A DNA stretch of 64,000 nt from Thermoanaerobaculia bacterium (GTDB lineage: Bacteria; Acidobacteriota; Thermoanaerobaculia; UBA5066). The stretch covers positions 1,664,001 to 1,728,000 of the forward strand of contig CAVRAY010000001.1 of NCBI GenBank assembly GCA_963719225.1, written 5' to 3'. Positions within the stretch are counted from its first letter, which is position 1; every line of letters begins with the position of its first letter. Made by a program: the position numbers and the translations under genes. Below are positions 2,504 through 25,467 of this stretch, piece after piece. The notes under the pieces are model-generated. The model was not told the origin of the DNA, made no database searches, and saw only the letters and a program-made list of their open reading frames with translations.

Positions 2504-2650
2504 CGCCTGCCTTACCGCTTGCGGAAGAAGAATGGATTGCGCCCGAAGTGCGCCGGCCGGGATCTCCAGCGATCGACGTTACGCACCGGAAGGCGGCGCC
2601 GGAATGGATCAAATGAATCAACGCTCGCTTCGGGCGGAGGGCGCGAGAAA

Positions 2651-2727
2651 TGGTGGGCCCGACAGGAATCGAACCTGCGACACGCGGTTTAGGAAACCGC
2701 TGCTCTATCCAACTGAGCTACGGGCCC
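2651..2727 (-). tRNA. tRNA-Arg(CCT)
   Basis: Reverse complement GGGCCCG TAGCTCAGTTGGATAGAGCA GCGGT TTCCTAA ACCGC GTGTC GCAGG TTCGATT CCTGT CGGGCCC ACCA; acceptor, D, anticodon and T arms and CCA all present. Confidence 0.97.
2689..2727 (-). repeat. att core copy (5' half of the intact tRNA)
   Basis: ttaggaaaccgctgctctatccaactgagctacgggccc, identical to 16839-16877. Confidence 0.95.
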
Positions 2728-3960
2728 ACCTTTTGTTTCTAACGACTTAGCAAAAGCGGCCTCGGACGAAACGGGTTCATTCTCGCTCGCGACCCGTACC
2801 AAAGCCGTACCGGCTTTCCGCGAGTGTACCTTGCCCGCGAGCCGGAGAACGCGGTCCGTCCGCGCCGAGATCCGCTTCGCCTCCTGCCACCTCTCGGAGT
2901 CGCCCCGGCCGCTCTCGTCGTAGTGCCGCTCCGTGACGGCCGTTCCTCGGTGCCCGAGGTTCGCCGAGACGGCCGAGAGCGTCTCGCCGCTTGTGCGGAG
3001 GAGAGTCGCGTTCTCGGCGCGAGCCCATCCCACCGTCGTCTTCTTCGGGACGCCCGCGCGCTCGCACGCGGCCTCAAGTGTGCGCCGGAGCGACGAGAGC
3101 GAGAGCGGGTGCCGGGCCTTCTCGCGGCGGCCGTCGGGGTGAGCCTGCCTGTAGCTCTCGACGGCGAGGAGCGGCGCGTCGGGCGCGAGCGGCGGCAGCG
3201 TGCTGATGTAGAGCTTGAGCGACCGCGCGAGGCCGGGGGAGACCGGCTTCTCGACGATCTCGCGGCGCCGGCTCTTCCGCCCCTTGTTGCGGCGGACGAG
3301 GAGGACTCGGTGCCGGAGGTCTACGTCTCCGACCTGTAGGCGCCGGACCTCGGCCTCGCGGATGCCGGTGTAGAGGCCGATCTCAAGAGCCGTCCGCGCG
3401 ACGGTGCCGAGCGGAAGCTCGCGGAGGAGGCGCCCAAGCTCGTCGGCCTTGAGCGTCTTCGGCTCGCGCGCCGGCAACTCAAGCGGCGGCATCGGCGGCA
3501 CCGGCAGCTGCGCGATCTTGAGCGCGGTCCGAAGGATGACGAGCCCGTTATGTATCGCGCGGCCGGCCGACGAGGTCGCGCGCTTGCCCCAAGCGATGAA
3601 GTCGACGAGGTCCTCGCGCCGGAGGTCCGCGTCGGCGGCCTCGCCGCGCCACCGGACGAAGAGCCCGCGCGCCTGGGCGATGCTCCGAAGGTGCGCGGCC
3701 GACTTCCCGAGGACCGAGCACTCGCGCGCGTAGGCGTCGAGAACGCCGCGGATCGTCGGCGGGGGAGTCGGGTCCGGCACGCTGATGCCGAAGCTCCGAA
3801 GGGCGGCGCGGCTCTGGAGGGTGTCGCGGAGCAGCTCGGCCTCCTCGCGCGTTCGGAACGTCTTCTTCACCTCTCGGCCGTTCACCTGAATGCGCAGCTT
3901 CCATTTCCCGCGCTTCGACCTCGCGATGCCGTCGACGGTTCCGGTTCGGGTCGTCCTCAT
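2689..3960 (-). CDS. int: Tyrosine recombinase/integrase with N-terminal arm-binding domain
   Basis: AGGAGG RBS before ATG 3960; LYTGIREAE (catalytic R), LGH...TERHY (H/Y); N-terminal KWKLRIQVNGREVKKTFRTREEAE. Stop codon TAA lies in the tRNA anticodon loop. Confidence 0.9.
   Translation of the reverse strand: MRTTRTGTVDGIARSKRGKWKLRIQVNGREVKKTFRTREEAELLRDTLQSRAALRSFGISVPDPTPPPTIRGVLDAYARECSVLGKSAAHLRSIAQARGLFVRWRGEAADADLRREDLVDFIAWGKRATSSAGRAIHNGLVILRTALKIAQLPVPPMPPLELPAREPKTLKADELGRLLRELPLGTVARTALEIGLYTGIREAEVRRLQVGDVDLRHRVLLVRRNKGRKSRRREIVEKPVSPGLARSLKLYISTLPPLAPDAPLLAVESYRQAHPDGRREKARHPLSLSSLRRTLEAACERAGVPKKTTVGWARAENATLLRTSGETLSAVSANLGHRGTAVTERHYDESGRGDSERWQEAKRISARTDRVLRLAGKVHSRKAGTALVRVASENEPVSSEAAFAKSLETKGGPVAQLDRAAVS
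2788..2812 (+). promoter_or_regulatory. Putative integrase arm-type site, left
   Basis: cgcgacccgtaccaaagccgtaccg; tandem CGTAC at 11-bp period, matching 16764-16788. Confidence 0.6.
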
Positions 3961-4189
3961 GAGTTCCTCCTGTCTTCGGGAAGGGGCGGGCGGGGAGTTG
4001 CGGCGCGAGGCTTCCGCACGCCGAGCCTGTCGCACGCGGCCGTCCACGCGCTCTCCTCCGTCTCGTGATCCGGCGCGCCCGAGCGGCGCGCTTCGTCGCG
4101 TCGATAGCCTCGGTGCGAGTCTGCGTCGTCATCGTGACCTTCTCGTTCTTGGTTCCTTCGTCGTGCGTGCGGGCGCGCTTCACGGCCCG

Positions 4190-5479
4190 TCAGACCCCAT
4201 CGAAGCGCTCGGCGCGAAGACTTTCTAGTGCCCCTGAAATGCCGGGCATGAGAGAGCTTGCGGTGATGCCCATGCTCCTGAGTTCCCTCAAGGCATTCCT
4301 TGCATCCTCCGCCGGAAGGTCAAACCACTCCAAGGCGTTCGGCACAAAGCCGGCGCTCGCATCTCCGTACGTACTGAGGAAGTGTATTGATTGCTGCGGC
4401 ACAGCCCGAGGATTGAAGGTTGCAGACGCCCTTACGAAGAGAGGATGACGTTCAGGGCCCGCAATTCTCCAAGGCGACGTTAAGTCGTCCCCAACCAGCC
4501 CGGATCCGATCTTCGTCCTATCGAGCTTGTAAATCCGGACGCGGTGCTCCGTGCGCCCCGCTAGACCGCACTCGCATCTCGGCCGGAGCGCGTTCGCGAA
4601 CGCGAAGTACGCAGCGATCATCGGCGAGAGTGACCAGTCAAGAAGAGGCGTCGGATAACCGTGATGCTGGGCGAGCGCGACGAGAAGAGCGTAGGTCTTT
4701 GGATCGCTTGCATCGAGGAGTTGCCCCATCGACGTCGACACAATCTCGGCGACGGCGGCCAGGTCCTCTTTTTCGAATCTGGCAAGGTCATACCGGCCCG
4801 ATCGGAAGAACGCCGTCGTCAGAGGGCGCATATTGCAGCCCTCTCCGCGGTAGAGAAACCGCGTGCGTGGCGCCTGTTCACCTCGAGCAAGCTCGAGTGT
4901 TTGGTCCCGAAACTCGTCCCAAGAACGATCACTATTCGCTCGCGACAAGACCCTCGCTACGACCTTTTCGAGATGGAAGTCCCCGCTCTTATCGGGTGAG
5001 TCGCCGCCGCTCCCTTTCTCATAGGAGACGGACCACTGTCCTACTAACGAATCACCTTCAACGGGCATCCACTCCGGCCTGAGGGGCTTAGCCGGATCAC
5101 TCGAAACCGGGACAATCTTCGCCGATGCCGTACACCTGTTTGGCAACGTCACGTTCGAGAAGGCTGACCGGGGCCGCACCGTCCACCCGCGCCGATCGTA
5201 GAAAACTGCCTCCGAGTCGCTGGTAACGAATTTGAAGCCCCCCCCAGGTGTTGGCCATGCATGGACAGGTAGCAGAACGAAAGGCGTATCACCGTGGGGG
5301 TCAGGGGAATCGATGTACGCGTGCCCGTTGATGTACGCGTGCCCGTCAGGGAGGGTTTGCAGGGATTGCTGGTCAAACGTGAGAACCAGTTGACGGAATC
5401 GGTCGACGAGCCCACCCCACCGGCCGACTAGAGCCGAAATTTCGGTTACAGCGCTCACTCCTTCGCCTCCGGCGCTCAC
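4190..5479 (-). CDS. FRG domain-containing protein
   Basis: FLYRGE...AQHHGYPTPLLDWSLSPMIAAYFA signature; visibly lower GC than its flanks. Confidence 0.85.
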   Translation of the reverse strand: MSAGGEGVSAVTEISALVGRWGGLVDRFRQLVLTFDQQSLQTLPDGHAYINGHAYIDSPDPHGDTPFVLLPVHAWPTPGGGFKFVTSDSEAVFYDRRGWTVRPRSAFSNVTLPNRCTASAKIVPVSSDPAKPLRPEWMPVEGDSLVGQWSVSYEKGSGGDSPDKSGDFHLEKVVARVLSRANSDRSWDEFRDQTLELARGEQAPRTRFLYRGEGCNMRPLTTAFFRSGRYDLARFEKEDLAAVAEIVSTSMGQLLDASDPKTYALLVALAQHHGYPTPLLDWSLSPMIAAYFAFANALRPRCECGLAGRTEHRVRIYKLDRTKIGSGLVGDDLTSPWRIAGPERHPLFVRASATFNPRAVPQQSIHFLSTYGDASAGFVPNALEWFDLPAEDARNALRELRSMGITASSLMPGISGALESLRAERFDGV

Positions 5480-5706
5480 GTTCGCGCCTTCTTCTTCGTG
5501 CTCACGACGCTCGGCGTTGGCCCGACCGCGATCCGATCCGCTACCGCGCGCCGCACCATCTCTGCGACCGACGACAGGCCCTCGCGCTTCGCGGCCCTAC
5601 GCCACGCCGCGAGCGTCCCTTTCGGGAGCTTCACGACGAACGCTTCGATGTGCGTTCGGCCACGCGGCCGACCCGGCTTTCGCTTCTTCGCCTGTTTCGT
5701 GGCCAT
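5476..5706 (-). CDS. Small ribbon-helix-helix/CopG-like DNA-binding protein
   Basis: 76 aa; basic PGRPRG start, then FVVKLP...WRRAAKREGLSSVAEMVRRAV; GTGA overlap with the FRG gene. Confidence 0.6.
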   Translation of the reverse strand: MATKQAKKRKPGRPRGRTHIEAFVVKLPKGTLAAWRRAAKREGLSSVAEMVRRAVADRIAVGPTPSVVSTKKKART

Positions 5707-5829
5707 AGTTTTAGTCTATCTCAAAACTCGGAAGCGCGCCACGCGACGCCCGGCGGTCGGTCGGGATGCCGAGGTCGGAGAGGTCGCGCGGCTGGCGCTC
5801 GAAGCGCCCTGCTTTATCCTTGCGTTAAC

Positions 5830-6328
5830 GTGGCTGAACAGCTCGCGACCATCTGCCCTAAGTGCGGCTTTCAACACCCGGCCCCGGCGCAGGCATGCGC
5901 GAAGTGCGGGGTTATCTTTGCGCGCTTCTCTCCTGAAAAGGTCCGCGTCCCGGCCGCCCAAGTTGTGGTCTCGACAACGACACTCGGAGAGCCGTTCGAC
6001 ACGCTCCGACCCGTCTACGCCGTCACGACGAATATGCAGGGCGTCTTGGACGCTGCCGCTCGGAAGCTCGGGGTCGACGTCAAGGCGGTGACGGATTCCG
6101 AGGTGTTCTCGGCGTTCCTGCTCGGCGACTCGGTCGCAAACTACAAGGCGTTCCCGATCGCTTTCGCGGTCGTGCGTCGAAGAACTGAAGCGCCAGACGG
6201 CCCGGCTTGGCGGAGACGCAGTCGTTGGGTTGCGGATGAACTTCGACCTCGATCGGTCGGGAGGCGGTCTTCAGGGCTTCACGATGCAGCTCTTCGGGAC
6301 CGCAGTGCGGCGCCGTCAGTCGTCCTGA
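5830..6328 (+). pseudogene. Zinc-ribbon plus YbjQ-like (heavy-metal-binding) protein, frameshifted near 6172
   Basis: CPKCG...CAKCG, then in a shifted frame EELKRQTARLGGDAVVGLRMNFD...MQLFGTAV (YbjQ-like). Confidence 0.6.
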
Positions 6329-6359
6329 GGCTCGGCCGTCGCGCTACCATCGCCACCTC

Positions 6360-6572
6360 GTGAGCACCGGCACCGTCAACATGTCCTTCGCCCCGATCGG
6401 AGCGAACCTGCCGGACTTCGACAATTACTACTGCCGCGACTGCCGGCGCATCGTTCACGTAAGGAAGGGATCGCCCGGCTTTCGCGCGTGCCCGACTCCG
6501 GGCTGCACGGGCCCGACGGGCTTCGGGATGTACTGGAAGACGCCGAGGCCGCGAGCCGGCGTGAAGCGCTGA
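6360..6572 (+). CDS. Small putative Zn-binding protein
   Basis: 70 aa with CRDC...CPTPGC. Confidence 0.4.
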   Translation: MSTGTVNMSFAPIGANLPDFDNYYCRDCRRIVHVRKGSPGFRACPTPGCTGPTGFGMYWKTPRPRAGVKR

Positions 6573-6812
6573 GACGCGCGGGAGAACGGCCTCGCCCGTC
6601 ACGGACGCGGGCGAGCTGCTGCGCGCGGGCGGCGCGATCCTTCGGGATGCCGAGGTCGGAGAGGGTCGGAGCAGACGGGACGCCGCGCCTCGTCTGCTGA
6701 GACTTCGGCTCGCCTCTCGCAGCCCGAGGCGCCGCGTAGAATTGCGTTGAATCGCTATCAGGATCGTCAGGACGGAGACCGCCACGCCCCCTGACCATAT
6801 GGAGACTCGAAC

Positions 6813-7343
6813 ATGAGGAAGACTTTCTTGACCGCCGTAGCCATGCGCTTTCTGACATTAGCGGTGGCGCTATCGTCCGGTGTAGTTCTCGCACAGAAGC
6901 CCGCCGACGTTCACGGCTGGGGAAAAGTGAAGTGGGGGATGACCCTCGCGCAGATCCAGAAGCTCTATCCAGAGGCGGAGCCGTTCACGAAGACGTGGGA
7001 AGACGGAAGAAAGTCGTCTGGACTGAGAATCCCCAAATTCGACCTGATCCACTTCCCGTTCGAGGTCACGTTCTGGAAGAAGGACGCCGACAAGAGGCTC
7101 GATTCAATCAGCCTCAGTACCGAGGCGGGCATGGTCGTGTTTAGGGAACTTGAAAAGCAGCTGACGCTCAAGTACGGCTCTCCTACGTTGAAGGATGATT
7201 CGAAGCCTCGGAAACGCTCCCGCACGTGGATGTTTCCGTCAACTGAGATTGAACTCTTGTTTTTGGAGTGGTTGCCTCCAGCTCCATCGGAAGTGAACCT
7301 CGGCTACTCGCCCGTCGATAAGGGTTCGCGCGACAAGTTGTAG
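6813..7343 (+). CDS. Exported hypothetical protein (accessory cargo)
   Basis: GGAG RBS, signal peptide ending VVLA-Q, lower GC, opposite strand to the element core. Confidence 0.7.
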   Translation: MRKTFLTAVAMRFLTLAVALSSGVVLAQKPADVHGWGKVKWGMTLAQIQKLYPEAEPFTKTWEDGRKSSGLRIPKFDLIHFPFEVTFWKKDADKRLDSISLSTEAGMVVFRELEKQLTLKYGSPTLKDDSKPRKRSRTWMFPSTEIELLFLEWLPPAPSEVNLGYSPVDKGSRDKL

Positions 7344-7656
7344 TCGATTCTCTTGAAGGGGGTCGAGAAGTGGCCCGCCGGGCGGCGCCATCGCCCAGCC
7401 GACGAGAGCCGCCCCAACGGGCCGCACGTTCCGTCAGGGCAGACCCTTCGATGCACGATGACGAGGAAGGTTCGTGTTTTCACCGGTAGCTCCTTTCAAG
7501 GGGAAACCCGTTCCAACGGTGAAACGGGTTTTGCGCGCGAAGGTAGGGGCGGGCGCTCGCAACGCCCGCGCAGTAGCGGGGTCCGCCGAACCCTCGGCCA
7601 CGAGGACCGCGACCGGCGACGCGCAACGGCGCACCGCGACGGCGGAGGTGGGAGAT

Positions 7657-7908
7657 TCACCACGGGAACTTCGTGCCGCCGAGGACGGGGCGCGGCTCGA
7701 AGCCGTCGTCGGGCGCGAGCTTTGTGAGCGACTCGGCGTCCTTCTCGGCTCTCGCGGCTTCGCGGAAGTCGCACTGTCCAAAATCGTTCGCGCTGTAGAT
7801 GAGTGTCGATTCTTGGCCGAGTCGCTCGTCGGATGCGGCGACGGCGGCCTTGAGGTCGCTCTCGCTCGGTCGGTCGATCGGGCCGAAGGTGAGACCGAAG
7901 AGTTTCAT
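7657..7908 (-). CDS. Hypothetical protein
   Basis: AAGGAG RBS, 83 aa. Confidence 0.55.
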   Translation of the reverse strand: MKLFGLTFGPIDRPSESDLKAAVAASDERLGQESTLIYSANDFGQCDFREAARAEKDAESLTKLAPDDGFEPRPVLGGTKFPW

Positions 7909-7959
7909 GATGACGTGCTCCTTTCGTTGGTCGTTGGTCGATGGTTGGGAAGGGACGGG

Positions 7960-8448
7960 CTATTTGAAAACTTCGGGATGGCTGCCGAACGCGCTGCCGA
8001 GCGGGTTCAGCACCAATTCGTAGTCGACGAGCCGCGTCAACCGGCGAGCGGCGGTGACGGCCTCGGGCGCGAAGACGACGGAGACCGAAGGCACCGGGCG
8101 AGCGCCGAGCGTTTTCAACTCGGCCTGAAGAGCCCACGCCTCGCGGATGGCGGCGTCGCGCTTGTCGAGGGCACAAGCCGCGCCAACGAGCGCCGCACCG
8201 AGCGCCGCGACGACGCGCGCGACGTCATCCGAGATGGCCGCGTGCTCTCTTGTCGCGGCGTCGATCCTCGCCTGCTTCTCGTGCTCGGCCTTCTCGCGCG
8301 CCTCCTCCTCCCCGCGTGCCTTCCGCTCCTCGTCGAGGCGCACCTCCTCTGCCTCCGCCTCCCGGAGGCGCCTCGACGAGGCCGCGAGCGTCCGCACCTC
8401 TTCTTCGGTCATCGTCTCGGCCGGTTTCGCAAAGGGGTTCATGCTCAT
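7960..8448 (-). CDS. Coiled-coil hypothetical protein
   Basis: GGAGGT RBS before ATG 8448; E/R/A-rich helical sequence. Confidence 0.65.
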   Translation of the reverse strand: MSMNPFAKPAETMTEEEVRTLAASSRRLREAEAEEVRLDEERKARGEEEAREKAEHEKQARIDAATREHAAISDDVARVVAALGAALVGAACALDKRDAAIREAWALQAELKTLGARPVPSVSVVFAPEAVTAARRLTRLVDYELVLNPLGSAFGSHPEVFK

Positions 8449-8977
8449 GCGTACCTCCTGTCGGTTTCGATGATTGCGGCGATCTCGTCGCCGTCGAGAT
8501 GCTTCCGATCCGCGAGCGCCTCGGCGATGAGCCGCCACGCGCGACGGTGTTCGGCGATGACCGTCCACGCCCCGACTGCGGCGTCGCAGACGATCTCGTG
8601 GACGCGCGGCGCGAGGCGTTCGAGAAGGGCCGCGAGCGCCGGGCCGTCCTCGGGCACGAGGCCGCCCGTCCGCGCGTGCTCTTCGAGTGCGATGTTCTGC
8701 GCGTGGCGGTACGCGATCCCGAGGTCGCGGCGCGAGCATTCGAGATCTGCGGCGAGCCCGAGCCTCATCCGATCGGACATGAGCCCGGCGACCGCGACGA
8801 GGACCATGACCCTCGGGGTCCCCGGCTGCGTCAAACCCCGCCGGCCGCGAACGGTCGCGAAGTCGGCGCCGTCGCCCTTCTCGGCGACGACGACGTAGCG
8901 GCCTCGTGAAAATCGACCTCGCCGGGCGCAGAGCGAGGGCACGCGACGAAGCGCGGCACGACGAGCGCGCTCACCAT
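8445..8977 (-). pseudogene. Peptidase M41-like (HExxH) protein, 1-nt frameshift near 8896
   Basis: cac gag gcc gct [c]ac gtc gtc gtc gcc: adding one base restores HEAAHVVVA. C-terminus IAEALADRKHLDGDEIAAII resembles the FtsH/M41 tail. Confidence 0.6.
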
Positions 8978-9717
8978 TTCTCCCTGTCGGCGACGGTGAG
9001 CAGCGCCTCGGGCAACACGCCGGACCTCGCCGGCCTGAAGGTGCACGTGTCGCCAGCGCGGAAACTCGACCTTCAGCCCCAAGAACGCGACCGTGCATCC
9101 GTTGTGTCCGTCCTCCCATTCGCTAAAGAGCACGCGCAGGCGGGAGAACTTCCGCTCGATTTCGAGGACGACTTCCTCGGCATCCGGCGCGCGCGGAACG
9201 AAAGGCCCCTCGCTCACGCGACCTCCTCGGCCACCGGCGCCAGGTTTTTCTTTGCACGACTCGCCCTCGGCTTTCGCTCGCGGCGCATCGCTTCGGAGGC
9301 GGCGTCGCGCTCTTTTCGATCTTCTCGGCGAAGGCGCGCCCGCGACGGAGCGCCTCGGAGACGGCAGCCTCACGGCCAAGCAACGTCTCCATCGCCGTCT
9401 CGGCGAAGCGGTCGCCGCGCGCCTCGCCGGAGAAGACGACCTCGCCGCACTCCTCCGTGACACCGACGCCGCGACGCCCGAGGGCCGCGATGAGGACGGC
9501 GACCTCGTCAACCTCGGTTGCGCTCGCGCGGCAGCCTGCCGCACGCCTCGGCCCCCCCGTTCGGGAGGGCGGCCCGGTCCGGCGCCTGCTCTTCGGCCAC
9601 GCAGGCTCCGGCAGATGCCGCGAGGGGATGCGCGAGGCTCCACGGCTGACTGATGCAAATGAACCGTTCACGTCGGCCGGGCACTCGCCGCATCCTGCGT
9701 GTGTAAACACTGGAGGC

Positions 9718-10041
9718 ATGACGATGCGTAGGAAGTTGCTGAACCTCGGCGTTCTTGTGATCGCCCTCGGGGTAGGCGCAGGGTGCAGCAGCACGGCCAT
9801 CCCCGGTGCCGAAAACGTGCGCATCACCGAGGACCCGAAGGACGTCGCCGCGTGCAAGCTGATCGAGGCGCGGCCGTCCGCCTACGTGTTCAACACGAAG
9901 GCCGTCAGGGTCACGCTGCAGGACTTCGCCATGCAGCACGGCGGCGATACCGTCCTGCTTCGCGTCCCGAACGCGGGCGTTATTTACAACTGCAAGGGTG
10001 TAGACACGCGCCAGCCGGTCCCCGTCGCGCCGCCGAAGTAG
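9718..10041 (+). CDS. DUF4156-like lipoprotein
   Basis: GGAGG RBS, lipobox GAG-C, GAENVRIT...ACKLI...GGDTVLL...IYNC pattern. Confidence 0.7.
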   Translation: MTMRRKLLNLGVLVIALGVGAGCSSTAIPGAENVRITEDPKDVAACKLIEARPSAYVFNTKAVRVTLQDFAMQHGGDTVLLRVPNAGVIYNCKGVDTRQPVPVAPPK

Positions 10042-10250
10042 GAGCGAGGGCGGACCTGGGCCTTCTTCGCGCTCGTCGTGACGAACGGTGAGCTTCCCAA
10101 TCAGCACCGCGCACTCGTCGACCTCGCTCGCGCGGCAGCCTGCCACACGCCCGAGCATCTCGGCCGGGGCCGAGGCCGCGCCTCCCGGCAGTTCGCCTGC
10201 GTGCGGCCTGCCGGCAGCGGAGGCGCCCGGCTTCGCAGACTTCGGCGCGC

Positions 10251-11718
10251 TCACCAGTCACCGTCCCACGCCGAGCGCGTCGGCGGGCTGCCCCAGGCCA
10301 CGAGCTTCTCCGCCGCCTCGGGCGTCAGCCAGGCGCTCGGCTGCCGATCGCCGCCGATGTCGTCCAACGTGAACGACCGGCCACCGGCCGCGACGCTCAA
10401 CGCGACGAGGAGCGAGTCGAAGAGGTCCGGCGAGTCCGACGGGTCGACGCAGCGAATCTTTCCGCTGCTCGTGATCAGGTACTTCATCCCGAGAAGCTCG
10501 CGGCGGAGGCCGTCGTGCTTCGGAAGGCGGAAGAGGCCCGCTTCGAGGAGGCCGCGAAGCGCCCACGCAAGTTCAGCCTTCACGTTGACGAAGCGGTCCG
10601 GTTCGAGGGCGCGGTCGCTCGCGCGGAACGCGACGATGCCGAGCGCCTTCTCCTCGCGCAGCGCGTCGGCGACGCCCTGCCCGATCGCCACCGTGTCGAT
10701 CGCGAGGACGCGCGCGCCGGCCTCGCGCAACCGCATCAACGTCTTCCCGCGCGTCACGGCGGTGTCGCGCTCGTGCCAGCCCTCGACCGAACGAAGTTGA
10801 AAGCGGCCGAGAGCGTCGGGGCCGGCGAGAAGCGAGAGCGCCGAGGCGTCGCCCGCGACGCTGCCCGCAACGTCGAGACCGGCGACGGGCACGCCGTCCA
10901 CCTCGAAGCCGGCGTCTTCGGCTCTCGCAATCCAGGAGTACGGGAACAAGCTGCCTTCGTCGTCGGCGATGTAGCGCGCGAGGCACCTGCTTTGATACTC
11001 GGGCGACTGCTCGCCCCATTCGGCGAGGCGAGCGGCCTTCCATTCCGCCTTGCCCGGCAGGCCCTCGGCGATCAGGTCGTCGATCGTCACGACGGCGCGA
11101 ACGACACTCGGCCCACCCTTGACGTCGCGCTCATAGAACGGGCCGGAAGGAATCGACGGGGTCGAGATCATCACGTCGAGCGTCTCGGGCGCGTCGAGGA
11201 GCGCCTCGGTCGACTCGAAGATCGCGGGCTCGATCGCCTTCGCCTCGTCTGCGATTCGGAGCGCCGCCACCGGGGAGTGTCTGCCTTCCAAGTTCACGGC
11301 GTGATCCGTCGAGAGGCCGACGAGGTCCCACGCGACGCCGAACGTCAGTTCCGTCTGCAAGAGGCGGCCGACGCCGGCCGAGGCGAGGAGGCTGCCGCCG
11401 TAAAGGCGCGCCAGCTCGACCCAGAGGACGCCTTCCACGGCCGCCCACGTCGGCGCCGTCGTCAGGCCGCGAGCGCCGGGCCTCGTCGCCATCCACCACA
11501 GACCGAGTGCCGCCGCCTCAAGTCGTCTTACCAGCGCCGTGTGCCGTTCGCGCGTGAACCCGGAGATGCTGCTTGCCGCGAACGAGGCGCGCGCGGATCT
11601 CCTCGCAGTGCGCGGCCTGCCAACGCCGAGGCTCGCCGCGAAGGACGAGGCGCCAGAAGAGCGCCGGATCGTCGCGACACTCCGCGAGGACGAGGGCGAG
11701 GTCGCGAGCGGTCGTCAC
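10251..11718 (-). pseudogene. terL: Terminase large subunit, frameshifted at ~11519
   Basis: Walker A (AHGAGKTT) in 11518-11718 continues in another frame: APT, Walker B IADEAK, RNase H-like GLDVA, IDTVAIGQG, SPDLFDS. Confidence 0.8.
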
Positions 11719-12313
11719 GAGCCGGCTCCGTCTTCGGGGTCCGACGCGGCGCCCGGCACAGAGACGCGCGGTTTTACTAACCTCGGATCGCCCCCCTTAA
11801 GTCCCGCCGCCAGAACGCCAGCCGGTAAAGCGGGTACGACATCGGGACGGGTCGCAGAGGTTTCCTCGCCCCTCGTCGCCTCGACCTTGAGGGCCGACGC
11901 GGGCTCGGCCGAACCTTCTACAACGCCCTGCGCCAGCTGCGCGCAGGCTTGTGTGACCTGAGCGGCTTCGAGCCCGGCTCTTCTCTGCCGAGCTTCGGCA
12001 AGGGCGCGCGCAAGCTCGGCGCTCAAGTCGCCGAAGCCGCCGCCCAGCGTGACCGACTGTTTCGGAGCGCCCCAGCTCCAGAGCAGAATCGCACGAGCCG
12101 CCTCGAATCGAATGCGCCCGCTGCGCGACGAGAGCAACGCCCGGAGCGTCTCGGCGGCCTGCGCACTCATCGCGTCGGCGACCTCGATACCGGCGCGCGT
12201 TCGACGATCCTTCAGGCCACGCGGGCGGCCGGGATTCTTCGGCGGGAACGGCCGGCCGATTCGCGTCTCGGGCGATCCGTTCGCGCGGCGGGCACGCCCG
12301 TCGTCTCCGTCAT
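11715..12313 (-). CDS. Putative terminase small subunit (DUF5681-like), probable frameshift near the 5' end
   Basis: Frame upstream of ATG 12170 reads GRPFPPKNPGRPRGLKDRRTR; directly upstream of terL; ATG 12313 with RBS is in another frame. Confidence 0.5.
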
Positions 12314-12320
12314 TCAGCCT

Positions 12321-12432
12321 TCTCCGTTCCGAGGCGTTCCGACCCGTTCCGACCAGTTCCTAGAGCGCGTCGGGAACACGTCACCCTCTCCGGCGCCGGG
12401 ACGCCGCGAGGCGTTCCCACGAGGCGTTCCCG
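12321..12432. repeat. GTTCC iteron-like repeats (putative replication origin)
   Basis: tctccgttcc gaggcgttcc gacccgttcc gaccagttcc at exact 10-bp period, an inverted GGAAC at 12373, and further gcgttccc copies at 12411 and 12424. Confidence 0.5.
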
Positions 12433-12486
12433 GCGCCCCGGGGGTACGGGGGGGAAATGACATCTCAAAACTCACCCCTTCGGCGG

Positions 12487-13763
12487 TCACGGGAGGGCCT
12501 CCCCGGGCGCCTCGACGTTTTGACGCGTTCCCGCTCCTGCCTCGTCCGTCGCGACCCAGACCCGAACGGTCCGCCGGTCGCCGTTCGCGTTCAGGCGTAC
12601 TACCGTTTCGAGGCGGATTCGGCCCTGCGCGTGACGCTGCCCGGCGAGATCGCCGACCCACTGCTTACGGCGACCGAGCGCCTTCGCCAGCTCCTCGACG
12701 GTGAGCCCGTCCCGGTGCCGGCGGAGGAGGAGGTCGAAGTCCTCCAGTTGCGCCGGTCGCGCTCCTCTGCCTTCGCGCTCGCCTCTGCCTTGCGGCGCTC
12801 CGGCGACGAGGGCTGCTCCTCGTCGGTCGACTCGGCGACCCGGTAGACGGCGAGGTCGCGGGAGTAGACGAGGGCGAGCGGCGACGGCTCGTCGCCGCTC
12901 CGAACCTTGTCGAAGACGAGGAGGCGCGCGTCGCGGTCGGAGCCCTTCGGGTGCTCGAAGATGAGCGAGAGGTCCGGGTCGTCGCGCATCGCCGACGTTC
13001 CCCGGATACGGTGACGGGATTCCTTTCCGTCTGTCGGCTTCGAGAAGTGGTGGAGGACGAGGAAGGCGATGCCGTGCTTCTCGGCGAGGCCGAGGAGCGG
13101 GCGGACGACGCCGGCCCGAAAGCGCGAGGCGTCGTTCTCGTCGTCGAAGTAGAAGCGCCCGAGCGGGTCGGCGACGACGAGCTTGATGCCGACGGCGGCG
13201 CAACGCGCGACCGTCGCGGCGAACTCCGGCGAGCGAAACTCCGCCGGCCGCGCTCCGCGCGACGGGACGTAGAAGTCCGGGGCCTCGATACCGAGCGCGT
13301 CGGCCGCCACGCGAATGCGGCGCTTGAATAGCTGCCGGTTTCCCTCCGCGAGCCAGTGAAAGACCGGAGCCGGCGAATGCGAGCGCCATCCGAACGCGCC
13401 GCGCCCTACGGAGAGGAGCAGCCCGGCGTTGACGGCGAGCGTCGTCTTACCGACGCCTCCCTCCCCGGAAAGCATCGCTAGCCCGCCCGCCGGGAGGAGC
13501 CCTTCGAGGAGCCACGCGACCGGCTCCTCCTCCTCGCCCAAGGCGGCGGAGAGGAGCACCGGCTCGACGCCACCATCGGCCGCGACGACGCGCCGGCCGT
13601 CCGACGCGGGCGAGGCGGGTTCCGTCGCGGGCACCACGAACTCCTCGCCCCAGTCGTTCCCGGCCTCCGTCGTCGAGTCGGCGTCGCGTGCCGCCTCCTC
13701 GCGCGTCGCGCCGAGACGTGCGACCTCCTCGATGATGTGGCTCGGCCGGTTCGGCTCGGTCAT
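12487..13763 (-). CDS. AAA_25/RepA-like SF4 helicase with C-terminal wHTH (frameshift ~12750)
   Basis: LLPAGGLAMLSGEGGVGKTT, VVADPL, VLHHFSK...RGTSA; the HTH (GLTVEELAKALGRRKQWV) is in a shifted frame. Confidence 0.8.
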
Positions 13764-14281
13764 CCGCGCCCCCGCGCCCGCTTCTGCTCCCGAGCGACAC
13801 GAGCGAAAACCTCGAGGATCTCCTCCTCGTTAGGCACCGGGCCGGCGTAGTTCGTCACCCAGGCCCCGACGAGGACGAGCGCGACGAGGTGAGCGACGCC
13901 CTTGTCGAGAAGGTAGCGCGTCAGGGTCGCGATCGCGTCCGCCCGCTCCTCGCCGAACGCGAGGCGCGTGGCGATCTTCAGCACGGCGCCGTCGGGCGTC
14001 TTCTCGAAGAAGTCCGCCCCCCGCTTCCCGACGAGTTCCCCGAGCCACGCCGGCGCGCGCTCGCCGATCAACGCGCGGGCCGCGAGCCTCCGGTTCCGCG
14101 CCGCCGCGATAGCGGCCCGCCGCTTCTCCTCGGAGGACATCGCCGCGCGCCGCGACTCCGCCTCTCGGACGAACGCGCCCGCGTTGAACGCGAGGACGTC
14201 CGCGAGGCGCTCGTCGGCGGTGCCGTCTAGCGCGGCGCGGGCCGCCTCGTCGTTCGCAGGCACCTCGATGACGTCGCTCAC
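13760..14281 (-). CDS. Primase C-terminal (PriCT-1)-like protein
   Basis: GEERADAIATLTRYLLDKGV...AWVTNYAGPVPNEEEILEVF pattern; GTGA coupling. Confidence 0.55.
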   Translation of the reverse strand: MSDVIEVPANDEAARAALDGTADERLADVLAFNAGAFVREAESRRAAMSSEEKRRAAIAAARNRRLAARALIGERAPAWLGELVGKRGADFFEKTPDGAVLKIATRLAFGEERADAIATLTRYLLDKGVAHLVALVLVGAWVTNYAGPVPNEEEILEVFARVAREQKRARGRG

Positions 14282-15313
14282 GCGCGGTCCGCTCCGAGCA
14301 CGAGGTCCGCCGCGACCTCGTCGTCGTCCGGCCGCGCCCTCTCGTCCGCGACCTGCTGCGCCTGGACCGAATCGGGCGCCTCCTTCCCCCATGAATCAAA
14401 GCCGGCAATCGTGCGTCTCGAAAACATGTCCAGCCGCCTCCCGGCCGTGACGCGCCGGACGAGGTCGTAGAACGCCTCGGGCTTCTCGCTGTGCTTGCCG
14501 CGCGGCGCCTCGAAGCAGGTCGGGAACGCCTTCGTGTCCATGAACAACGGCGAGCCCTTGCGCGCGTAGAGGGCGAACTCGCAGTTGTACGCCGGACCTC
14601 CGAGCGGCTGGTAGCCGCCCGGCTTGTGCCAGACAAACGTGCAGACGTACGTCAGGCCCCACGTCCGAAGCAGGCCGAACGCGTCCGGAAGAAACCGATG
14701 CGTCGTCCAGAGCCAGAAATGGGCGTCCTCTGCCAGCGGCGGCGCTATCGCCGCGATCTCGTCGAGGCTCATCGTCGGGTACTGAAAACCCGGGTGACTC
14801 GGGCTATCGCGCTCCATCCACTCGACGGGCCACGGTGGGTCGTCGACGGCGGCGTCGTAGGTCCCGGCAAGGGCCTTTGTTTCGCGGGCCTCGACGTCGT
14901 CGAGCTTCCGCCGCGCCTCGTCGCACCTAGCTGCCTGCCGAAGGCGACGATGTCTTTTCGCTCCGTCTCGGGCGTCACTTCGCCGGACTCGATGGCCGCG
15001 AGGAGCTTCTCCTCGGGCCACCGGGAGAGTTGATAGAGCGTTCCCACGAGGGCGGTAAAGCGAAACGGTGTTTCGCATTTGAGAGGACTGGGTTACGGGC
15101 AATGGCCATGAGCATCTGCGCCGCGCGTGGCCCGAAGGGCAATTCCGCCTCGACCATCGCCTCGAAGTCGCCGTGCTGTAGAGCCTCCTTCGCCCCGAGG
15201 AGAAGCCGGCCGGTGCCAACGATCCCTTCGACGAGCCCGGACCACATGGCGTAGATCGCGTCGCGCCAGTCGGCGGCCGTAGACAGCGCGGCCGGCATGA
15301 TGGCGGCGCTCAC
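14278..15313 (-). pseudogene. DUF3102-like N-terminus fused to MT-A70 family adenine methyltransferase, two frameshifts (~15040, ~14920)
   Basis: DPPW, YPTMSLDEI, FWLWTT, WHKP, HSEKPE, RLDMFSR; N-terminal GRLLLGAKEALQHGDFEAMVEAELPF. Confidence 0.75.
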
Positions 15314-15618
15314 GCGGTCCTCCGGCGTACTAGCGGGGCGGGCGTCAACGCGGCCTCCGTCACCCTGCGCCACGCGGCGACCATCCTCGGCGTCGAGACC
15401 CAACGGCCCGACGAGTCGCGGCGCACGAGCAGGTCGAGCCGATGCCGCGCGCGCTCCGACGGCGAGCGGAGCCACCTTCTCAAGGTCGCGACGCTGCGCC
15501 GGATCGACGACGCGACCTCGTCGAGCCCGATCTCGCGATCGGCGCCGCCGACGAGCGCGATGCGCTCAAGCTCCGCGACGCGGCGCGCGAGGTCCGCGAT
15601 GAGGGCGGCCTCGCTCAT
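15310..15618 (-). CDS. Excisionase/AlpA-like HTH protein
   Basis: IGLDEVASSIRRSVATLRRW. Confidence 0.6.
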   Translation of the reverse strand: MSEAALIADLARRVAELERIALVGGADREIGLDEVASSIRRSVATLRRWLRSPSERARHRLDLLVRRDSSGRWVSTPRMVAAWRRVTEAALTPAPLVRRRTA

Positions 15619-15839
15619 CGCGAGCCGCCCGCAGCGATCTTGTCGACGGCCTCGTCGAGACGGCGGAGCACGTCGGGGTCCACGCGCTCGGGGAATCTTT
15701 CGGCGATGGACGCCGTCGTCAAGCTCACGTGCGCGACCCTCGCCGTCTCGGCCAACGTGAGGCCGGCTCCGTTGACGGCGACGCGGAGACGCTTCAGGCG
15801 AAGCTCGGTCGCGGGCGAGAAGATGCGGCGTCGTTCCAT
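15615..15839 (-). CDS. Cro/XRE-like HTH protein
   Basis: LRVAVNGAGLTLAETARVAHVSLTTASIAER. Confidence 0.65.
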   Translation of the reverse strand: MERRRIFSPATELRLKRLRVAVNGAGLTLAETARVAHVSLTTASIAERFPERVDPDVLRRLDEAVDKIAAGGSR

Positions 15840-15911
15840 CGGCGCCGCTAATTACGAATCTAAATCGGGGCGCCGCGCCGGACGAGATGTCGCGGATCTC
15901 GTCCGGGATTT

Positions 15912-16652
15912 CTAGCGCTTCGGTCGCCCGCCCGCGCTCTTGGTCGCCCGCTCGACGCGCTTTCTAATCGCCTCGGCCAACCGCTCCAGCACCAGCGGGT
16001 CGCGCTCTACAGCCACCTTTGCGGCTTCCGGGTCGCGCGACCGTCGGTCGATCCTCTCGGCCCAAAGGACGAGCCCCTGCTTTGCGGCGCTCCGTCCACG
16101 GCGCCGCATCTCGTCGACGTGACGCGCTACCTGTCTTCTCAAGTCCGCGATCGCTCGCGAGTCCCCGGCCGTCGCCGACGAAAGGCTCGCTCCGGCTCCC
16201 CGAAGAAGACTCTTCGAGAACGCGAGCGCGTCGAGGAGGTCGACGTCGCGCCGCCGCTCACGGAGGGATGCTTTTACGCCCGGATCGAGGACCCGTCGCC
16301 GCCTGAGCGCGCTTACCACATCGTCGAAGGCGTCGGGCATGCGGCCGTCCTCGTGCAACATCGCGAGGTTGATGAACGCCTCCTGGACGCTCGAAGCTCG
16401 GACGACGGTCATGTCCTCGGCGAGCAGTTCGCCGAGGCGGTACACGAGGTCGGTTCGGTGCAACCCGCGAGCCGCGAGCCACTCGCGGACACGAATCTCC
16501 GCCGCGTACGCGCCGGAGAGGTGCCAGAAGGCCGAGACGCCAAGCTCTCCGAGGCCCTCTGCGGTCCGGCGAAGCCTCGACGCGTGCACGTCTCTCGTTG
16601 CCGCCGTCGCCGTCTTCGGTTTCGCGCCCACGTTCCCTCGCTCCCCTCGCAC
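15912..16652 (-). CDS. Hypothetical protein (first gene of the element)
   Basis: 246-aa ORF co-oriented with the element core. Confidence 0.5.
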   Translation of the reverse strand: MRGERGNVGAKPKTATAATRDVHASRLRRTAEGLGELGVSAFWHLSGAYAAEIRVREWLAARGLHRTDLVYRLGELLAEDMTVVRASSVQEAFINLAMLHEDGRMPDAFDDVVSALRRRRVLDPGVKASLRERRRDVDLLDALAFSKSLLRGAGASLSSATAGDSRAIADLRRQVARHVDEMRRRGRSAAKQGLVLWAERIDRRSRDPEAAKVAVERDPLVLERLAEAIRKRVERATKSAGGRPKR

Positions 16653-16763
16653 CGTGAGAGCCGAGGCGGGCGCGGGAGCGAGGAGAACCGCCTTCGGCGT
16701 CGGGAGCTACCCGGCGCCGCCCGCCCGGCGAGGAGAAGTCTAGATTGAGAACGAAGCGAAGAG

Positions 16764-16788
16764 CGCAACCCGTACTGTTGTCGTACCG
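16764..16788 (+). promoter_or_regulatory. Putative integrase arm-type site, right
   Basis: cgcaacccgtactgttgtcgtaccg; same spacing as 2788-2812. Confidence 0.6.
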
Positions 16789-16838
16789 CATCGATTCCGG
16801 CGACTCACGGCAAAGGGTTTACCGGCGAGGCGGGCTAA

Positions 16839-16877
16839 TTAGGAAACCGCTGCTCTATCCAACTGAGCTACGGGCCC
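16839..16877 (-). repeat. att core copy (orphan tRNA 5' half, ends in the anticodon loop)
   Basis: Identical to 2689-2727; no tRNA 3' half follows it. Confidence 0.95.
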
Positions 16878-16977
16878 GGACCTCTGGCCCCGATCTGGCC
16901 GCGGCGAGCGAGTGTATCCGATCGACCCGCCGCGGAGTCCCTTGCGCCCGCCGCTGAGCGGGGTATCGTTAGCCGTC

Positions 16978-18480
16978 ATGGCCGGCTGGCGGCGGGCGAT
17001 CCTCGGCGCGTTCTGCATAAGCGCCCACGCGGCTCTGGCAGGCGGGCCGCCGCCCCTCGAGGCGGTCAGGGAGTGCCGCTGGGACGGCCCGACGCTCCTC
17101 GTCGACCTGCCGTGCGCTCTCCGGCTGGCGCGGCAGAACAGTTTCGACATCCTCGACCAGGAAACTTTCCTCAAGGCAAGCGAGCGGCGCGAAAAGCTCG
17201 CCGAGCGGGACTTCGCGGTTCTGTTGACGCCCTCGGTTTCGGCGGTCACGACGGGAAGCTCCCCTCAGAGCACGGCCGGGGGTACCGGGACGGCCACGGC
17301 GACACCCTCGACCGACTTCTACCGGGCAGGCCTCGGCCTCTCGAAGCTCTTCGGCATCGGGACCAACGTGAGCGTTCAGCCCTTCTACGAGTTCGGAGAA
17401 GGCAACCGGGCATCGGGCGTCCTCGCCGGCATCTCGCAGCCGTTCCTGCGCGGCGTGGCGCCGGTCTACGTCCGGAGCGCGCTGGACGCCGCAAAGTCAC
17501 AGGAGAGGGTCGCCGGCTGGTCGCAGATCCAGTCGTGCCTCGGCACGCTCGTCGGGGTCGTCGGACAGCTTTCCAGCCTCGGTGAGATACAGGAACGGCA
17601 TCGCCTCTTCTCGGAATCGCTGCTGTCGATGGAAACGAAGCTGACGATCACGGAAGCGCGCGAGCGCGCCGGCCTCGCATCCAGCCTCGATGTCCTTCGC
17701 ACGCGTATCGAGCGGACGAACCTCCGGGACCTCGTCGCCTCCGTCTCCGAGCAGCTCGAAGGTGCCGTCGACGCACTCCGCTTCACCCTTCGACTCCCGC
17801 AGGGCCTGCCGATCCGGGGCCTGGTGGGACCGAGGGACGAGCCGAAGCGGCCGGAGCCGGACGTGGAAACGTCCGGGCGATTCGACGTGAAGATCGCCTC
17901 GGAGGCGCTCTCGGAAGCGCGCCGGCAAGTCCGCGTCACGCGTCACGCGATCCTTCCCGACCTGAGCGCAGCATTCACCATGACGTATCGCAAGTCGGAA
18001 GCCCCCGAGCTACCCGCGACCCTGGCCTCCCCGTCTGGCACCACGTGGGCCCTCTCCGTCAGCAGCTCCGGTGAGATCCGGCGGTCCGCCGAACGGGCCG
18101 CGTACCAGGATGCCCTCGATCGCGTGGAGGTCGCGACCCGCGCCCTCATCCAGACGCAGGAGCGGGCACGGGACGAAATCCGCTCTCTCGGCCGCCTTCT
18201 CGACCGGCTCCACAAGCAGGAGGCGATTCAAAGGGAGCAGATCGAGCAGGCGGCTTCCAAGCTCGCGATCGCCGAGGCCAAGTTCCGGAACGGCCTCGCG
18301 AGCAATTTCGACTTCCTCGAGGCGGAGTCGGAGCTTCGGAACGCGCAGGTCAACCTCCTGGTGGCGCAGCGGGACCTGGTTCCCGCCGCGTATCGCCTCC
18401 TGAATGGGATGGGCCTTTACGACGAATGGCTGAAGGAGACCTATGCCGTGGATTGCGCGGCTTCGACGTCTTCTCACTGA
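16978..18480 (+). CDS. TolC family outer membrane efflux protein
   Basis: Signal peptide; AGLASSLDVL and KFRNGLASNFDFLEAE repeats. Confidence 0.85.
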   Translation: MAGWRRAILGAFCISAHAALAGGPPPLEAVRECRWDGPTLLVDLPCALRLARQNSFDILDQETFLKASERREKLAERDFAVLLTPSVSAVTTGSSPQSTAGGTGTATATPSTDFYRAGLGLSKLFGIGTNVSVQPFYEFGEGNRASGVLAGISQPFLRGVAPVYVRSALDAAKSQERVAGWSQIQSCLGTLVGVVGQLSSLGEIQERHRLFSESLLSMETKLTITEARERAGLASSLDVLRTRIERTNLRDLVASVSEQLEGAVDALRFTLRLPQGLPIRGLVGPRDEPKRPEPDVETSGRFDVKIASEALSEARRQVRVTRHAILPDLSAAFTMTYRKSEAPELPATLASPSGTTWALSVSSSGEIRRSAERAAYQDALDRVEVATRALIQTQERARDEIRSLGRLLDRLHKQEAIQREQIEQAASKLAIAEAKFRNGLASNFDFLEAESELRNAQVNLLVAQRDLVPAAYRLLNGMGLYDEWLKETYAVDCAASTSSH

Positions 18481-19909
18481 GGATCGCCGCGCGGCCCTCG
18501 CGGTGACGGCGGCGCTCGTCGGGACCACTGCGCTCTGGCTGGTCGGGCCGTGGCCGTCGCGCGCCTCACGTGGAGGGGAGGAGCCCAACCGCACGTGGGT
18601 CGTCAAGCAGACCGATGTCCGAAGCGGGGTCTGGGCAATGGGCGAGCTGGCGGCGAGCCGCTCCGTGGTCGTCAAGAATCGCCTGCCTGGCGCAGATGGA
18701 CGGATCCTCTGGATCGTCGACGACGGCGCCGAGGTGAAGGAGGGGGACGTGCTGGTCCGCCTCGATTCGAGCGGTTTCGAGGCCGAGCTGGCGCGCCTCC
18801 GCGCGGAGCTCGTCGCCCAGAAGGCGACGGTCGAGGCCGCACGCCAAACCCGGCTTGGGGAGGCGACGCGGATCGAGCAGCTGAACGCCGTGGCCTCTTC
18901 AAAGGTGGCCGGCGCGAACCTTCGTCGAAAGACCCTCGAGCAGGGTGAGGGCCCGATGGAGGAAGGCAAGCTGCAGGCGGAGCTTCAGAAGGCCCAGGAA
19001 GAGGAGAAACGCTGGAAGGGCTACGTCGAGGACCTGACGAGAGTCCAGGAGTCGGGAAGAAACGTGGCAGGCGAGCTGAAGACGGCCTCGGAAAAGCTGT
19101 CCGAGCTTCGCGAGAAGACGGCGCTCGCGCGAAAGCAGCTCGAAGGCTTCAAGGAGTTCGTCCTCCCCGCCAGGCTCGAAGAGGCGCGCGTCGGCGTCGG
19201 CGACGCGGAGGCGGAGCGCCGCCGGAGCGAGGAAGCCGGGCGGTATGCCGTCGGACGGGCGGACTCCGAGGTCGAAAAAGCGCGGGCTCAGGTCTTTGCG
19301 CTCGAAGCCAGAATCCGGGATCTCGAACGGATCATCTCGGATGCCGCGATTCGGGCGCCGGGCTCGGGCCTCGTGGTCCTCCGCGAGAACAACATCGAAG
19401 GGCGCGCGCGCAAGGCCCAGGTCGGCGACCGCGTCTACCAGGATTTTCCCCTTCTCGAGCTGCCGGACCCCTCGACGATGGAGGTCCGGGCCCGTGTCCG
19501 CGAGCTGGATCTGGAAACCCTCCGGTCGTCCAAGGCCGGGGAGGTCCTCGTCGAGGCGGTCCCGGGCGAGGTTTATCGCGCCGAGCTCAAACAGATCGGC
19601 GCGCTCGCGCTGCGGCGGGATGGCGAGGAGGAGAAGTACTTCAACGTCAGCCTCACGATCCTGCGACCCGACGCCCGGCTGCGTCCGGGGATGACGGCGC
19701 GCGTCTTCCTGGTCCGCGAGGAACGGCGGGGGGTCCTCGCGATCCCGCGAGAGTTCATCGCGAACCGCGGCGGCCGACCCGTCAGTCAGGTCCGTGACGC
19801 GCGGGGAAAGCTCACCGAGAGACCGATCCAGCTCGGCGCCGAGGGGCGCATCCTGGTCGAAGTCCGGTCGGGGCTGAAGGAAGGCGACGTTGTCGTCGCA
19901 TGGCGCTGA
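18443..19909 (+). CDS. Efflux membrane fusion protein (HlyD/MacA-like)
   Basis: DGAEVKEGDVLVRLD, IRAPGSG, LRPGMTA. Confidence 0.9.
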   Translation: MPWIARLRRLLTEDRRAALAVTAALVGTTALWLVGPWPSRASRGGEEPNRTWVVKQTDVRSGVWAMGELAASRSVVVKNRLPGADGRILWIVDDGAEVKEGDVLVRLDSSGFEAELARLRAELVAQKATVEAARQTRLGEATRIEQLNAVASSKVAGANLRRKTLEQGEGPMEEGKLQAELQKAQEEEKRWKGYVEDLTRVQESGRNVAGELKTASEKLSELREKTALARKQLEGFKEFVLPARLEEARVGVGDAEAERRRSEEAGRYAVGRADSEVEKARAQVFALEARIRDLERIISDAAIRAPGSGLVVLRENNIEGRARKAQVGDRVYQDFPLLELPDPSTMEVRARVRELDLETLRSSKAGEVLVEAVPGEVYRAELKQIGALALRRDGEEEKYFNVSLTILRPDARLRPGMTARVFLVREERRGVLAIPREFIANRGGRPVSQVRDARGKLTERPIQLGAEGRILVEVRSGLKEGDVVVAWR

Positions 19910-21828: not shown

Positions 21829-21937
21829 CGGCCGGGAGCTCGCGCTCCGATGGGTGCGACTAAAATGTCCCACGTTGGCGGACCGGACGCGCATTCTCTC
21901 GCGATGGGAGCCCTCCGGTCGTCTGGACCCGTGACGA

Positions 21938-23905: not shown

Positions 23906-23946
23906 AAAGAGCGCAATAATGGAGGCTGGGCCAGAAAGGACGAAGA

Positions 23947-25410: not shown

Positions 25411-25467
25411 GGGCCAGCGAGCGGGTGTGGAACAGGGATTTGCTTCTCACATGCCGGATTCGACAGA

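Follow-up and report, generated by a model that had tools for sequence, protein, structure and literature searches.

An intact-looking element of the reversed-polarity class at tRNA-Arg(CCT) in a Thermoanaerobaculia genome, and the layered history of its insertion site

Mobile elements in tRNA genes usually supply the back half of the working gene. Islands that carry a 5′ fragment of their target tRNA gene make up 159 of the 3,919 islands recorded by Islander, about 4% (PMC4383910), and this rarer case has been credited to the ‘reversed orientation’ element of Zhao and Williams 2002 (cited in PMC6563490). The archaeal pTN3-like integrases have their chromosomal attachment site (attB) in the 5′ half of a tRNA gene; the rebuilt tRNA is taken off its original promoter and is reported to be expressed from the integrase promoter (PMC8371274, PMC5495485), and such use of the 5′ half is described as infrequent in bacteria (PMC8371274). 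Klebsiella islands at the 5′ end of arg2 restore the tRNA 5′ end (bioRxiv 2020.11.02.365908), and HTVC019P-type pelagiphages carry the element attachment site (attP) downstream of the integrase, and in several of them a tRNA 5′ end (tRNA-Cys, -Leu or -Arg) is restored, the junctions having been verified by polymerase chain reaction (bioRxiv 410191). We analysed 64,000 nucleotides (nt) of a Thermoanaerobaculia genome (the window, C1:1664001–1728000; genome of 4.75 Mb in two contigs, from a bin with 6.2% estimated contamination), which contain an element of this kind in tRNA-Arg(CCT).

The junctions of the element are formed by the following features.

2651..2727, minus strand: intact tRNA-Arg(CCT), the AGG reader, rebuilt at the integrase-side junction (ARAGORN and Rfam)
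2689..2727, minus strand: attachment-site identity block, tRNA nt 1–39, putative crossover region (repeat search, tRNA fold)
2689..3960, minus strand: tyrosine integrase of 423 aa (PF00589 above cut-off, phrog_1)
16839..16877, minus strand: orphan 5′ half of the tRNA, the displaced original front half (repeat search, BLAST)

A direct repeat of 39 nt with 100% identity (2689–2727 and 16839–16877) corresponds to tRNA nt 1–39 and ends at the final base of the 7-nt anticodon loop, as the sequence-only reading of this DNA had described. Read along the direction of the tRNA, the flank comes first, then the orphan 5′ half, the element, the integrase and the intact tRNA. The genome holds a single bona fide gene for the CCT anticodon, a second ARAGORN call at C1:714271 failing Rfam. 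Genome-wide BLAST of all ARAGORN tRNAs returned the orphan half as the only 5′-end duplicate of tRNA-Arg(CCT) outside a tRNA (E 1e-15), and the same search found no 3′-side fragment of this tRNA in the genome, which would have made the site two-sided. The locus shows what PMC4383910 asks of a tRNA-gene (tDNA) island, namely an intact tDNA with a 5′ fragment upstream in the same orientation, 2–200 kb apart. Taken together, these data argue strongly for a tyrosine-integrase element of 14,150 bp (counting one copy of the identity block) that sits inside tRNA-Arg(CCT) and supplies the 5′ half of the working tRNA, whose transcription is predicted to come from the element. The element is genuine, looks intact and belongs to the known reversed-polarity class; its integrase clade is new and the history of the site is layered, while the polarity itself was already known.

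Further repeats near both ends of the element suggest how the site may be organized.

2794..2811, minus strand: two GGTACGG direct repeats with period 11, predicted arm-type sites inside the integrase tail (repeat analysis)
16770..16787, minus strand: period-11 GTACG repeats, matching the arm-type sites at the other element end (repeat analysis)
2736..2749, plus strand: degenerate site resembling that of integration host factor (IHF), adjoining the core (consensus match; clearer at the same place in related elements, at 7–8 of 9 positions)

In the related element of genome G001, period-11 GGGGCCA repeats occupy the corresponding places at both ends, and the spacing between repeats and core is ungapped in four integrase tails of the genus. 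Scored against the IHF consensus, 12 of 17 element-side flanks have the IHF-like word at 7–8 of 9 positions, located on the opposite strand between −18 and −24, compared with 5.7% of random 45-mers; genus-type host flanks likewise score 7–8 on the forward strand. The genome has four genes of the HU/IHF family. The pattern is consistent with a putative lambda-type attP with one arm inside the integrase 3′ end. On this model, attP (arm repeats, IHF-like site, core, arm repeats) would pair with the symmetric anticodon stem-loop in the reverse of the usual orientation, and insertion would proceed, likely, by crossover in the anticodon loop, at whose edge the identity block ends. Flanks before the orphan halves at L043:12983, L044:11655 and L046:3098 (G021, G197 and G205) were also seen to resemble the IHF-like element-side motif, which suggests repeated insertion in another element family too.

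Relatives of the element share its layout. The G001 element (14.6 kb) has an integrase 75% identical to that in the window, the same 39-nt orphan half and the same arrangement. In G013 the two outer flanks of the G001 element are joined directly to an intact tRNA, with TAGAAT at −14, and G013 thus provides an empty site for the element family, though not for the flanks in the window. All seven family loci with sequence past the integrase have the tRNA-Arg(CCT) 5′ end directly downstream (L031 and L035, whose sequence ends too early, are not in this count), which bears on the proposed check of whether integrase homologues also sit at tRNA 5′ ends. In L032, L033, L034 and L036 the integrase is followed only by tRNA nt 1–39 to 1–43, L036 being less clear as an attP; these may be junctions of either free circles or tandem copies. 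Period-11 repeats flank the tRNA half on both sides in L032, as in an attP, while in L033 they occur at the integrase side and an imperfect pair follows the half. The attP-like junctions in three metagenome contigs carry the 5′ half only. The proposed search for an attP junction thus succeeded in the homologous loci L032, L033 and L034, and that for an empty site in the sister element (G001/G013); neither succeeded for the element in the window.

The integrase protein was matched in 3 of 401 genomes of the class. Twelve other class genomes with two matches to the tRNA pattern were examined, and five had an upstream orphan half together with an intact gene; in three of these five, the stretch examined shows an unrelated tyrosine recombinase. 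Reversed polarity at tRNA-Arg(CCT) therefore recurs with several integrase types. Double matches in G012, G004, G271, G362, G230 and G110 were set aside as contig-end duplicates or two full genes, and those in G294 and G098 as two separate gene copies. Of five viral pattern matches, L061/L064 and L063/L065 (two junction types) carry the half only and L062 the full gene. No relative of this integrase was found among 64 viral pattern matches.

What transcribes the rebuilt tRNA was considered next to its new upstream sequence.

2823..2828, minus strand: TACACT at −101, candidate element-borne −10 (no other in the 1,100 nt of integrase gene that precede it)
2779..2784, minus strand: GAGAAT at −57, like the genus-type tRNA-Arg −10; possibly a second promoter element or an accessory-protein site (motif comparison)

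The sequence-only reading held that the element captures the native host promoter and places the tRNA under its own control. The second part stands in so far as the 5′ half is restored and the tRNA is cut off from its prior upstream sequence (G001 versus G013, and the half-only junctions); capture of a native host promoter is not supported. Transcription of the rebuilt tRNA from element DNA is predicted. A 9-mer containing TACACT, which occurs 11 times in the genome, is present as described both at 2820–2828 and around 16911–16916. As for its proposed role as element promoter, a TANNNT hexamer falls at −101 to −127 in all four same-genus tails, each time a different hexamer, compared with 2.9% of random 40-mers, in an interval that was chosen after viewing the data; it is found there in none of four more distant tails. 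The integrase bodies of three elements contain 0–1 TANNNT per 1,100 nt. An element-borne −10 some 100 nt upstream of the rebuilt tRNA is therefore plausible, with modest support from the sequences compared. Positions 2400–4300 yielded no terminator-like site. In our judgement, the chance that a weak promoter within the 3′ end of the integrase gene drives the rebuilt tRNA is about even; read-through from the integrase transcript is possible but clearly less expected, and it is rather unlikely that the tRNA is barely expressed and covered by tRNA-Arg(TCT). The Escherichia coli AGG reader (argW) is dispensable, as the UCU tRNA also reads AGG (PMC4652775). The present host has tRNA-Arg(TCT), and AGG makes up ~9% of its Arg codons in a rough set of open reading frames (ORFs); the cost of losing tRNA-Arg(CCT) may be low here.

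The integrase itself reads into the tRNA. Its C-terminus is GPVAQLDRAAVS, followed by TAA, and the last 12 codons and the stop are tRNA sequence (ORF 3960–2689), confirming the earlier description of an intact tRNA downstream of an integrase with tRNA-encoded last codons. Xer and integron models all scored far below cut-off on this protein. Residues R201, K226 and R314 are invariant, and H337 and Y347 near-invariant, in the family; we take these five to be catalytic. Tyrosine recombinases usually carry H-x-x-R. Here G311 stands in place of the usual H, and G-W-x-R (residues 311–314) occurs in all 23 aligned integrases, which reads as a signature of the clade.

Endings within the family vary. 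By C-terminal peptide, 4 of the 23 proteins end in the loop, 3 at tRNA nt 8–10 and 3 at nt 21–23, and 13 have no tRNA-encoded ending. Stops mapped on DNA in seven loci lie at +37, +37, +21, +21, +8, −17 and −19, which confirms all classes. A profile search over 1.84 billion representatives returned 40 proteins at E 1e-30 or better, and a loop ending was found in none of 41 more distant C-termini inspected, two of which satisfied only a loose two-residue rule. Each frame entering tRNA-Arg(CCT) hits a stop within the 5′ half, and the loop stop is one of three outcomes. Since the stops vary among homologues, the loop stop is not conserved. The special role once attached to it finds no support, as the stops of homologues fall in each of the three tRNA frames or ahead of the tRNA, and it is probably incidental. 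The integrase gene would simply end inside one attP arm, its final ~35 codons being DNA sites read as protein, and the frame would continue until a stop, here the TAA of the anticodon loop. This stop lies inside the identity block and recurs in the computed circular junction, so that the integrase protein is identical in circle and chromosome.

Two further proposals give the overlap a function. The broader of them is that a wobble-backed tRNA-Arg(CCT) is a recurring landing site whose promoter is replaced repeatedly by one hidden in the integrase tail and outliving the element, and, in addition, that RNase P destroys the integrase message only when the element is integrated and where the integrase reads into the tRNA, locking the element in; we regard this combination as unlikely. 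The narrower, which we also find unlikely, treats the overlap as a regulatory switch. RNase P would cut the integrated message at tRNA +1 and leave a stop-less mRNA for transfer-messenger RNA (tmRNA) tagging, and only the excised circle, with half a tRNA, would make stable integrase. Lambda retroregulation is a comparable switch on integration state. In silico, integrase leaders of 30, 60 or 100 nt all let the cloverleaf form, the host has tmRNA, and the 10 of 23 proteins and 5 of 7 DNA loci that read into the tRNA would lose their stop whatever the frame. However, the 13 close homologues without a tRNA-encoded ending, the two DNA loci that stop before the tRNA, the absence of loop endings among the more distant C-termini and the even use of the three tRNA frames all speak against a switch, and in G094 the integrase lies at the far end from the intact tRNA. 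If true, such processing would be a new way of coupling integrase level to integration state.

The sequence left before the orphan half bears on the history of the site.

16878..16925, minus strand: likely relic of an older related integrase tail, with TACACT (16911–16916) and two GGCCAGA of period 11 (16883–16889 and 16894–16900) (alignment)
16926..25420, plus strand: block of TolC, ATP-binding cassette (ABC) exporter and Ser-Thr kinase genes, acquired earlier and separating the ancestral flank from the tRNA (genome comparison, domain scan)
25433..25480, minus strand: genus-type upstream flank of the tRNA, stranded 8.5 kb away (comparison with genus genomes)

Window positions 16878–16937 align locally to the G001 integrase tail with a score of 49, and 1 of 5,000 random segments scored equally high, that one reaching the self-match maximum. 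The 45 nt of the relic outside the shared block, taken alone, were again equalled by 1 of 5,000, and a period-11 repeat of at least 7 nt arises in 0.18% of random 45-mers. In G005, ~120 nt of integrase tail are kept before the tRNA although the gene is lost, and this remnant starts at the same codons as the relic in the window; both begin just upstream of a TANNNT hexamer of the kind described above. Positions 16878–16925 are thus likely left over from a previous G001-like element belonging to the same family. With such a relic before the orphan half, the insertion site has likely been used repeatedly.

Of 16 genus genomes, 7 have a flank of the 25433–25480 type directly before tRNA-Arg(CCT), its GAGAAT falling between −22 and −24; the copy in the window has GAGAAG. 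The TolC block was matched in 2 of 28 other genus genomes, neither of which joins it to tRNA-Arg(CCT). It lies ~950 bp downstream of tRNA-Val(TAC) in G011 (L011, L038), and upstream of tRNA-Arg(CCT) in the present genome (G000) and G003 (L010, L039). In G003 the block is followed by 2.9 kb more and then by a stretch of ~60 nt similar to an integrase tail (p = 0.02 and 0.08); that genome retains an intact genus-type promoter, after which come bases with a loose likeness to the start of a decayed tRNA. The block is possibly an old cassette without integrase. Within it, window positions 24724–25060 encode a Pro/Thr-rich repeat of 12-nt period within a protein predicted to be exported; this kind of repeat is matched many times among relatives.

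The sequence-only reading took TACACT at 16911–16916 for the probable native −10 of the tRNA, captured by the element; in its fuller form, this view has the element evolve the same 9-mer as a replacement. No other TANNNT occurs in the 160 nt preceding the orphan half, and the position of this one, −39, lies in the span covered by −10 elements of host tRNA genes; random segments of 60 and 200 nt shared a TANNNT-containing 9-mer in none of 5,000 trials, and in G001 a strong host −10 does remain before the orphan half. However, this flank was found in none of the 28 genus genomes. The TolC side is likewise joined to the tRNA in none of them, which that reading had itself listed as evidence against it, and the commoner flank is of the 25433 type. 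The stretch aligns instead to a related integrase tail with its arm repeats, and TACACT is also part of an arm repeat in G157. We consider capture of an ancestral host promoter very unlikely and largely refuted by these comparisons. The flank may well have served the tRNA just before the present insertion, but as an element-derived promoter. One tRNA's upstream region has apparently been rebuilt repeatedly from element leftovers, and what lies before an orphan tRNA half is not necessarily the promoter that the host had originally.

Several results weigh against the account of an element-supplied, element-transcribed tRNA at a reused site. The relic matches one of nine tails tested and leaves the integrase tail of the window itself unmatched. 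No empty site or attP junction of this particular element was found in the 28 genus genomes, and one DNA sequencing run sharing 6% of words gave contigs with scattered pieces and no junction. Consensus promoter scans found no promoter. Under a matrix trained on the regions upstream of 38 host tRNAs, the integrase-side flank of the window had p = 0.08 and the TACACT flank p = 0.75, and at fixed position only L036 was significant among nine family flanks (p = 0.015); the matrix is low-powered, scoring several true empty-site flanks weakly. Finally, 5 of 7 DNA loci read into the tRNA, compared with 15–43% of shuffled tails staying open, for loci that are kin and a shuffle that ignores dinucleotides; this is a mild excess that a purely neutral tail leaves unexplained. 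An origin of the 39-nt repeat in misassembly, or as a duplication that is decayed or due to chance, is barely credible: the bin has its estimated contamination, but the match is exact and ends at the loop edge with matching arm repeats at both ends, independent loci share the structure, and the independent element in G001 with the same layout makes misassembly unlikely.

The remaining content of the element, whose GC content (68.2%) is near that of the genome, was examined by domain and phage-family scans.

4190..5479, minus strand: FRG-domain cargo gene, co-oriented, upstream of the integrase (domain scan)
10251..11492, minus strand: terminase-large-subunit-like gene with RNase H-like domain, weak match (domain and phage-family scans)
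12600..13763, minus strand: AAA_25 primase/helicase-like replication gene (domain and phage-family scans)
14278..15219, minus strand: MT-A70-family DNA methyltransferase-like gene (domain and phage-family scans)
15615..15839, minus strand: small helix-turn-helix protein, below the Pfam cut-off, a possible regulator or directionality factor (domain scan)

Satellites resembling phage-inducible chromosomal islands combine an integrase, a primase/helicase and a packaging gene with a lack of virion genes, in about 10–20 kb. The element has the integrase, the AAA_25 gene and the weak terminase match, and no capsid or tail match was found among the 24 ORFs scanned.

Observations outside the element were also made. 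Two genes of radical-SAM/SPASM type (213–2503, one domain-scanned) lie directly downstream of the tRNA; no DNA match to them was found in the 28 other genus genomes, so the 3′ side of the tRNA is accessory too. In G003, a 42-nt 3′ fragment of the same tRNA (L010:8472–8512) lies ~370 bp downstream of the gene with one small ORF between, which appears to be a tiny 3′-side cassette, the tRNA there being flanked on both sides. Elsewhere in the present genome, tRNA-Ala(CGC) has two exact 3′ copies 2.25 kb apart, a possible tandem, and there are a 3′ fragment of tRNA-Met and an internal fragment of tRNA-Val(CAC) (fragment regions C1:3644952–3665335, C1:107786–116241 and C2:859071–866061). Two tmRNA genes with slightly different tags each lie near tRNA-Pro(TGG) (C2:217541–222743 and 609793–615051), reflecting either duplication or the estimated contamination of the bin.

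Compared with known systems, the locus is a clear, well-anchored example of the uncommon 5′-restoring class. The polarity and the promoter swap are both already in print (PMC4383910, PMC8371274, PMC6563490, bioRxiv 410191), and the swap, with precedent, is a consequence of the reversed polarity. Mx8-type elements carry attP inside the integrase gene, and integration changes the integrase C-terminus. Here it does not, since the stop lies within the identity block. Like the 5′-fragment islands of Islander, the locus has a tyrosine integrase, an intact tDNA, a 5′ fragment upstream in the same orientation and an anticodon-centred site. It differs in its new integrase clade in Thermoanaerobaculia, with signs of repeated use of the site, and in an integrase gene that overlaps the attP arm and often the tRNA half. 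With pTN3 it shares the 5′-half target, the separation from the promoter and an attP overlapping the integrase gene; integration of pTN3, however, splits that gene, whereas here it stays whole. Expression of the tRNA from the integrase promoter is reported for the pTN3-like case; here integrase and tRNA share a common orientation. We found 128 phage records matching the 5′ half of E. coli argW. In two of them (LC616031.1 and HQ424691.1) the duplicated block is the first 24–25 nt, the D-loop region. These phages share the 5′ polarity, the isoacceptor tRNA-Arg(CCU) and (in the two records) host upstream sequence before the fragment, but they duplicate nt 1–24 and transcribe the integrase away from the tRNA. 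In pelagiphage MT375520.1 the integrase is followed by a co-oriented tRNA 5′ half, as here, although pelagiphages are full phages with a non-coding attP and an integrase stop before it. The dusA-associated integrases also replace the 5′ end of a gene and bring putative promoter elements (PMC4482086); their target is a protein-coding gene, in place of the tRNA gene here. In tRNA-dependent lysogeny, integration through a core of ~10 bp disturbs a host tRNA gene and a whole phage-encoded tRNA compensates (PMC10865867), whereas in the present element 39 bp rebuild the tRNA gene itself and no separate tRNA is carried.

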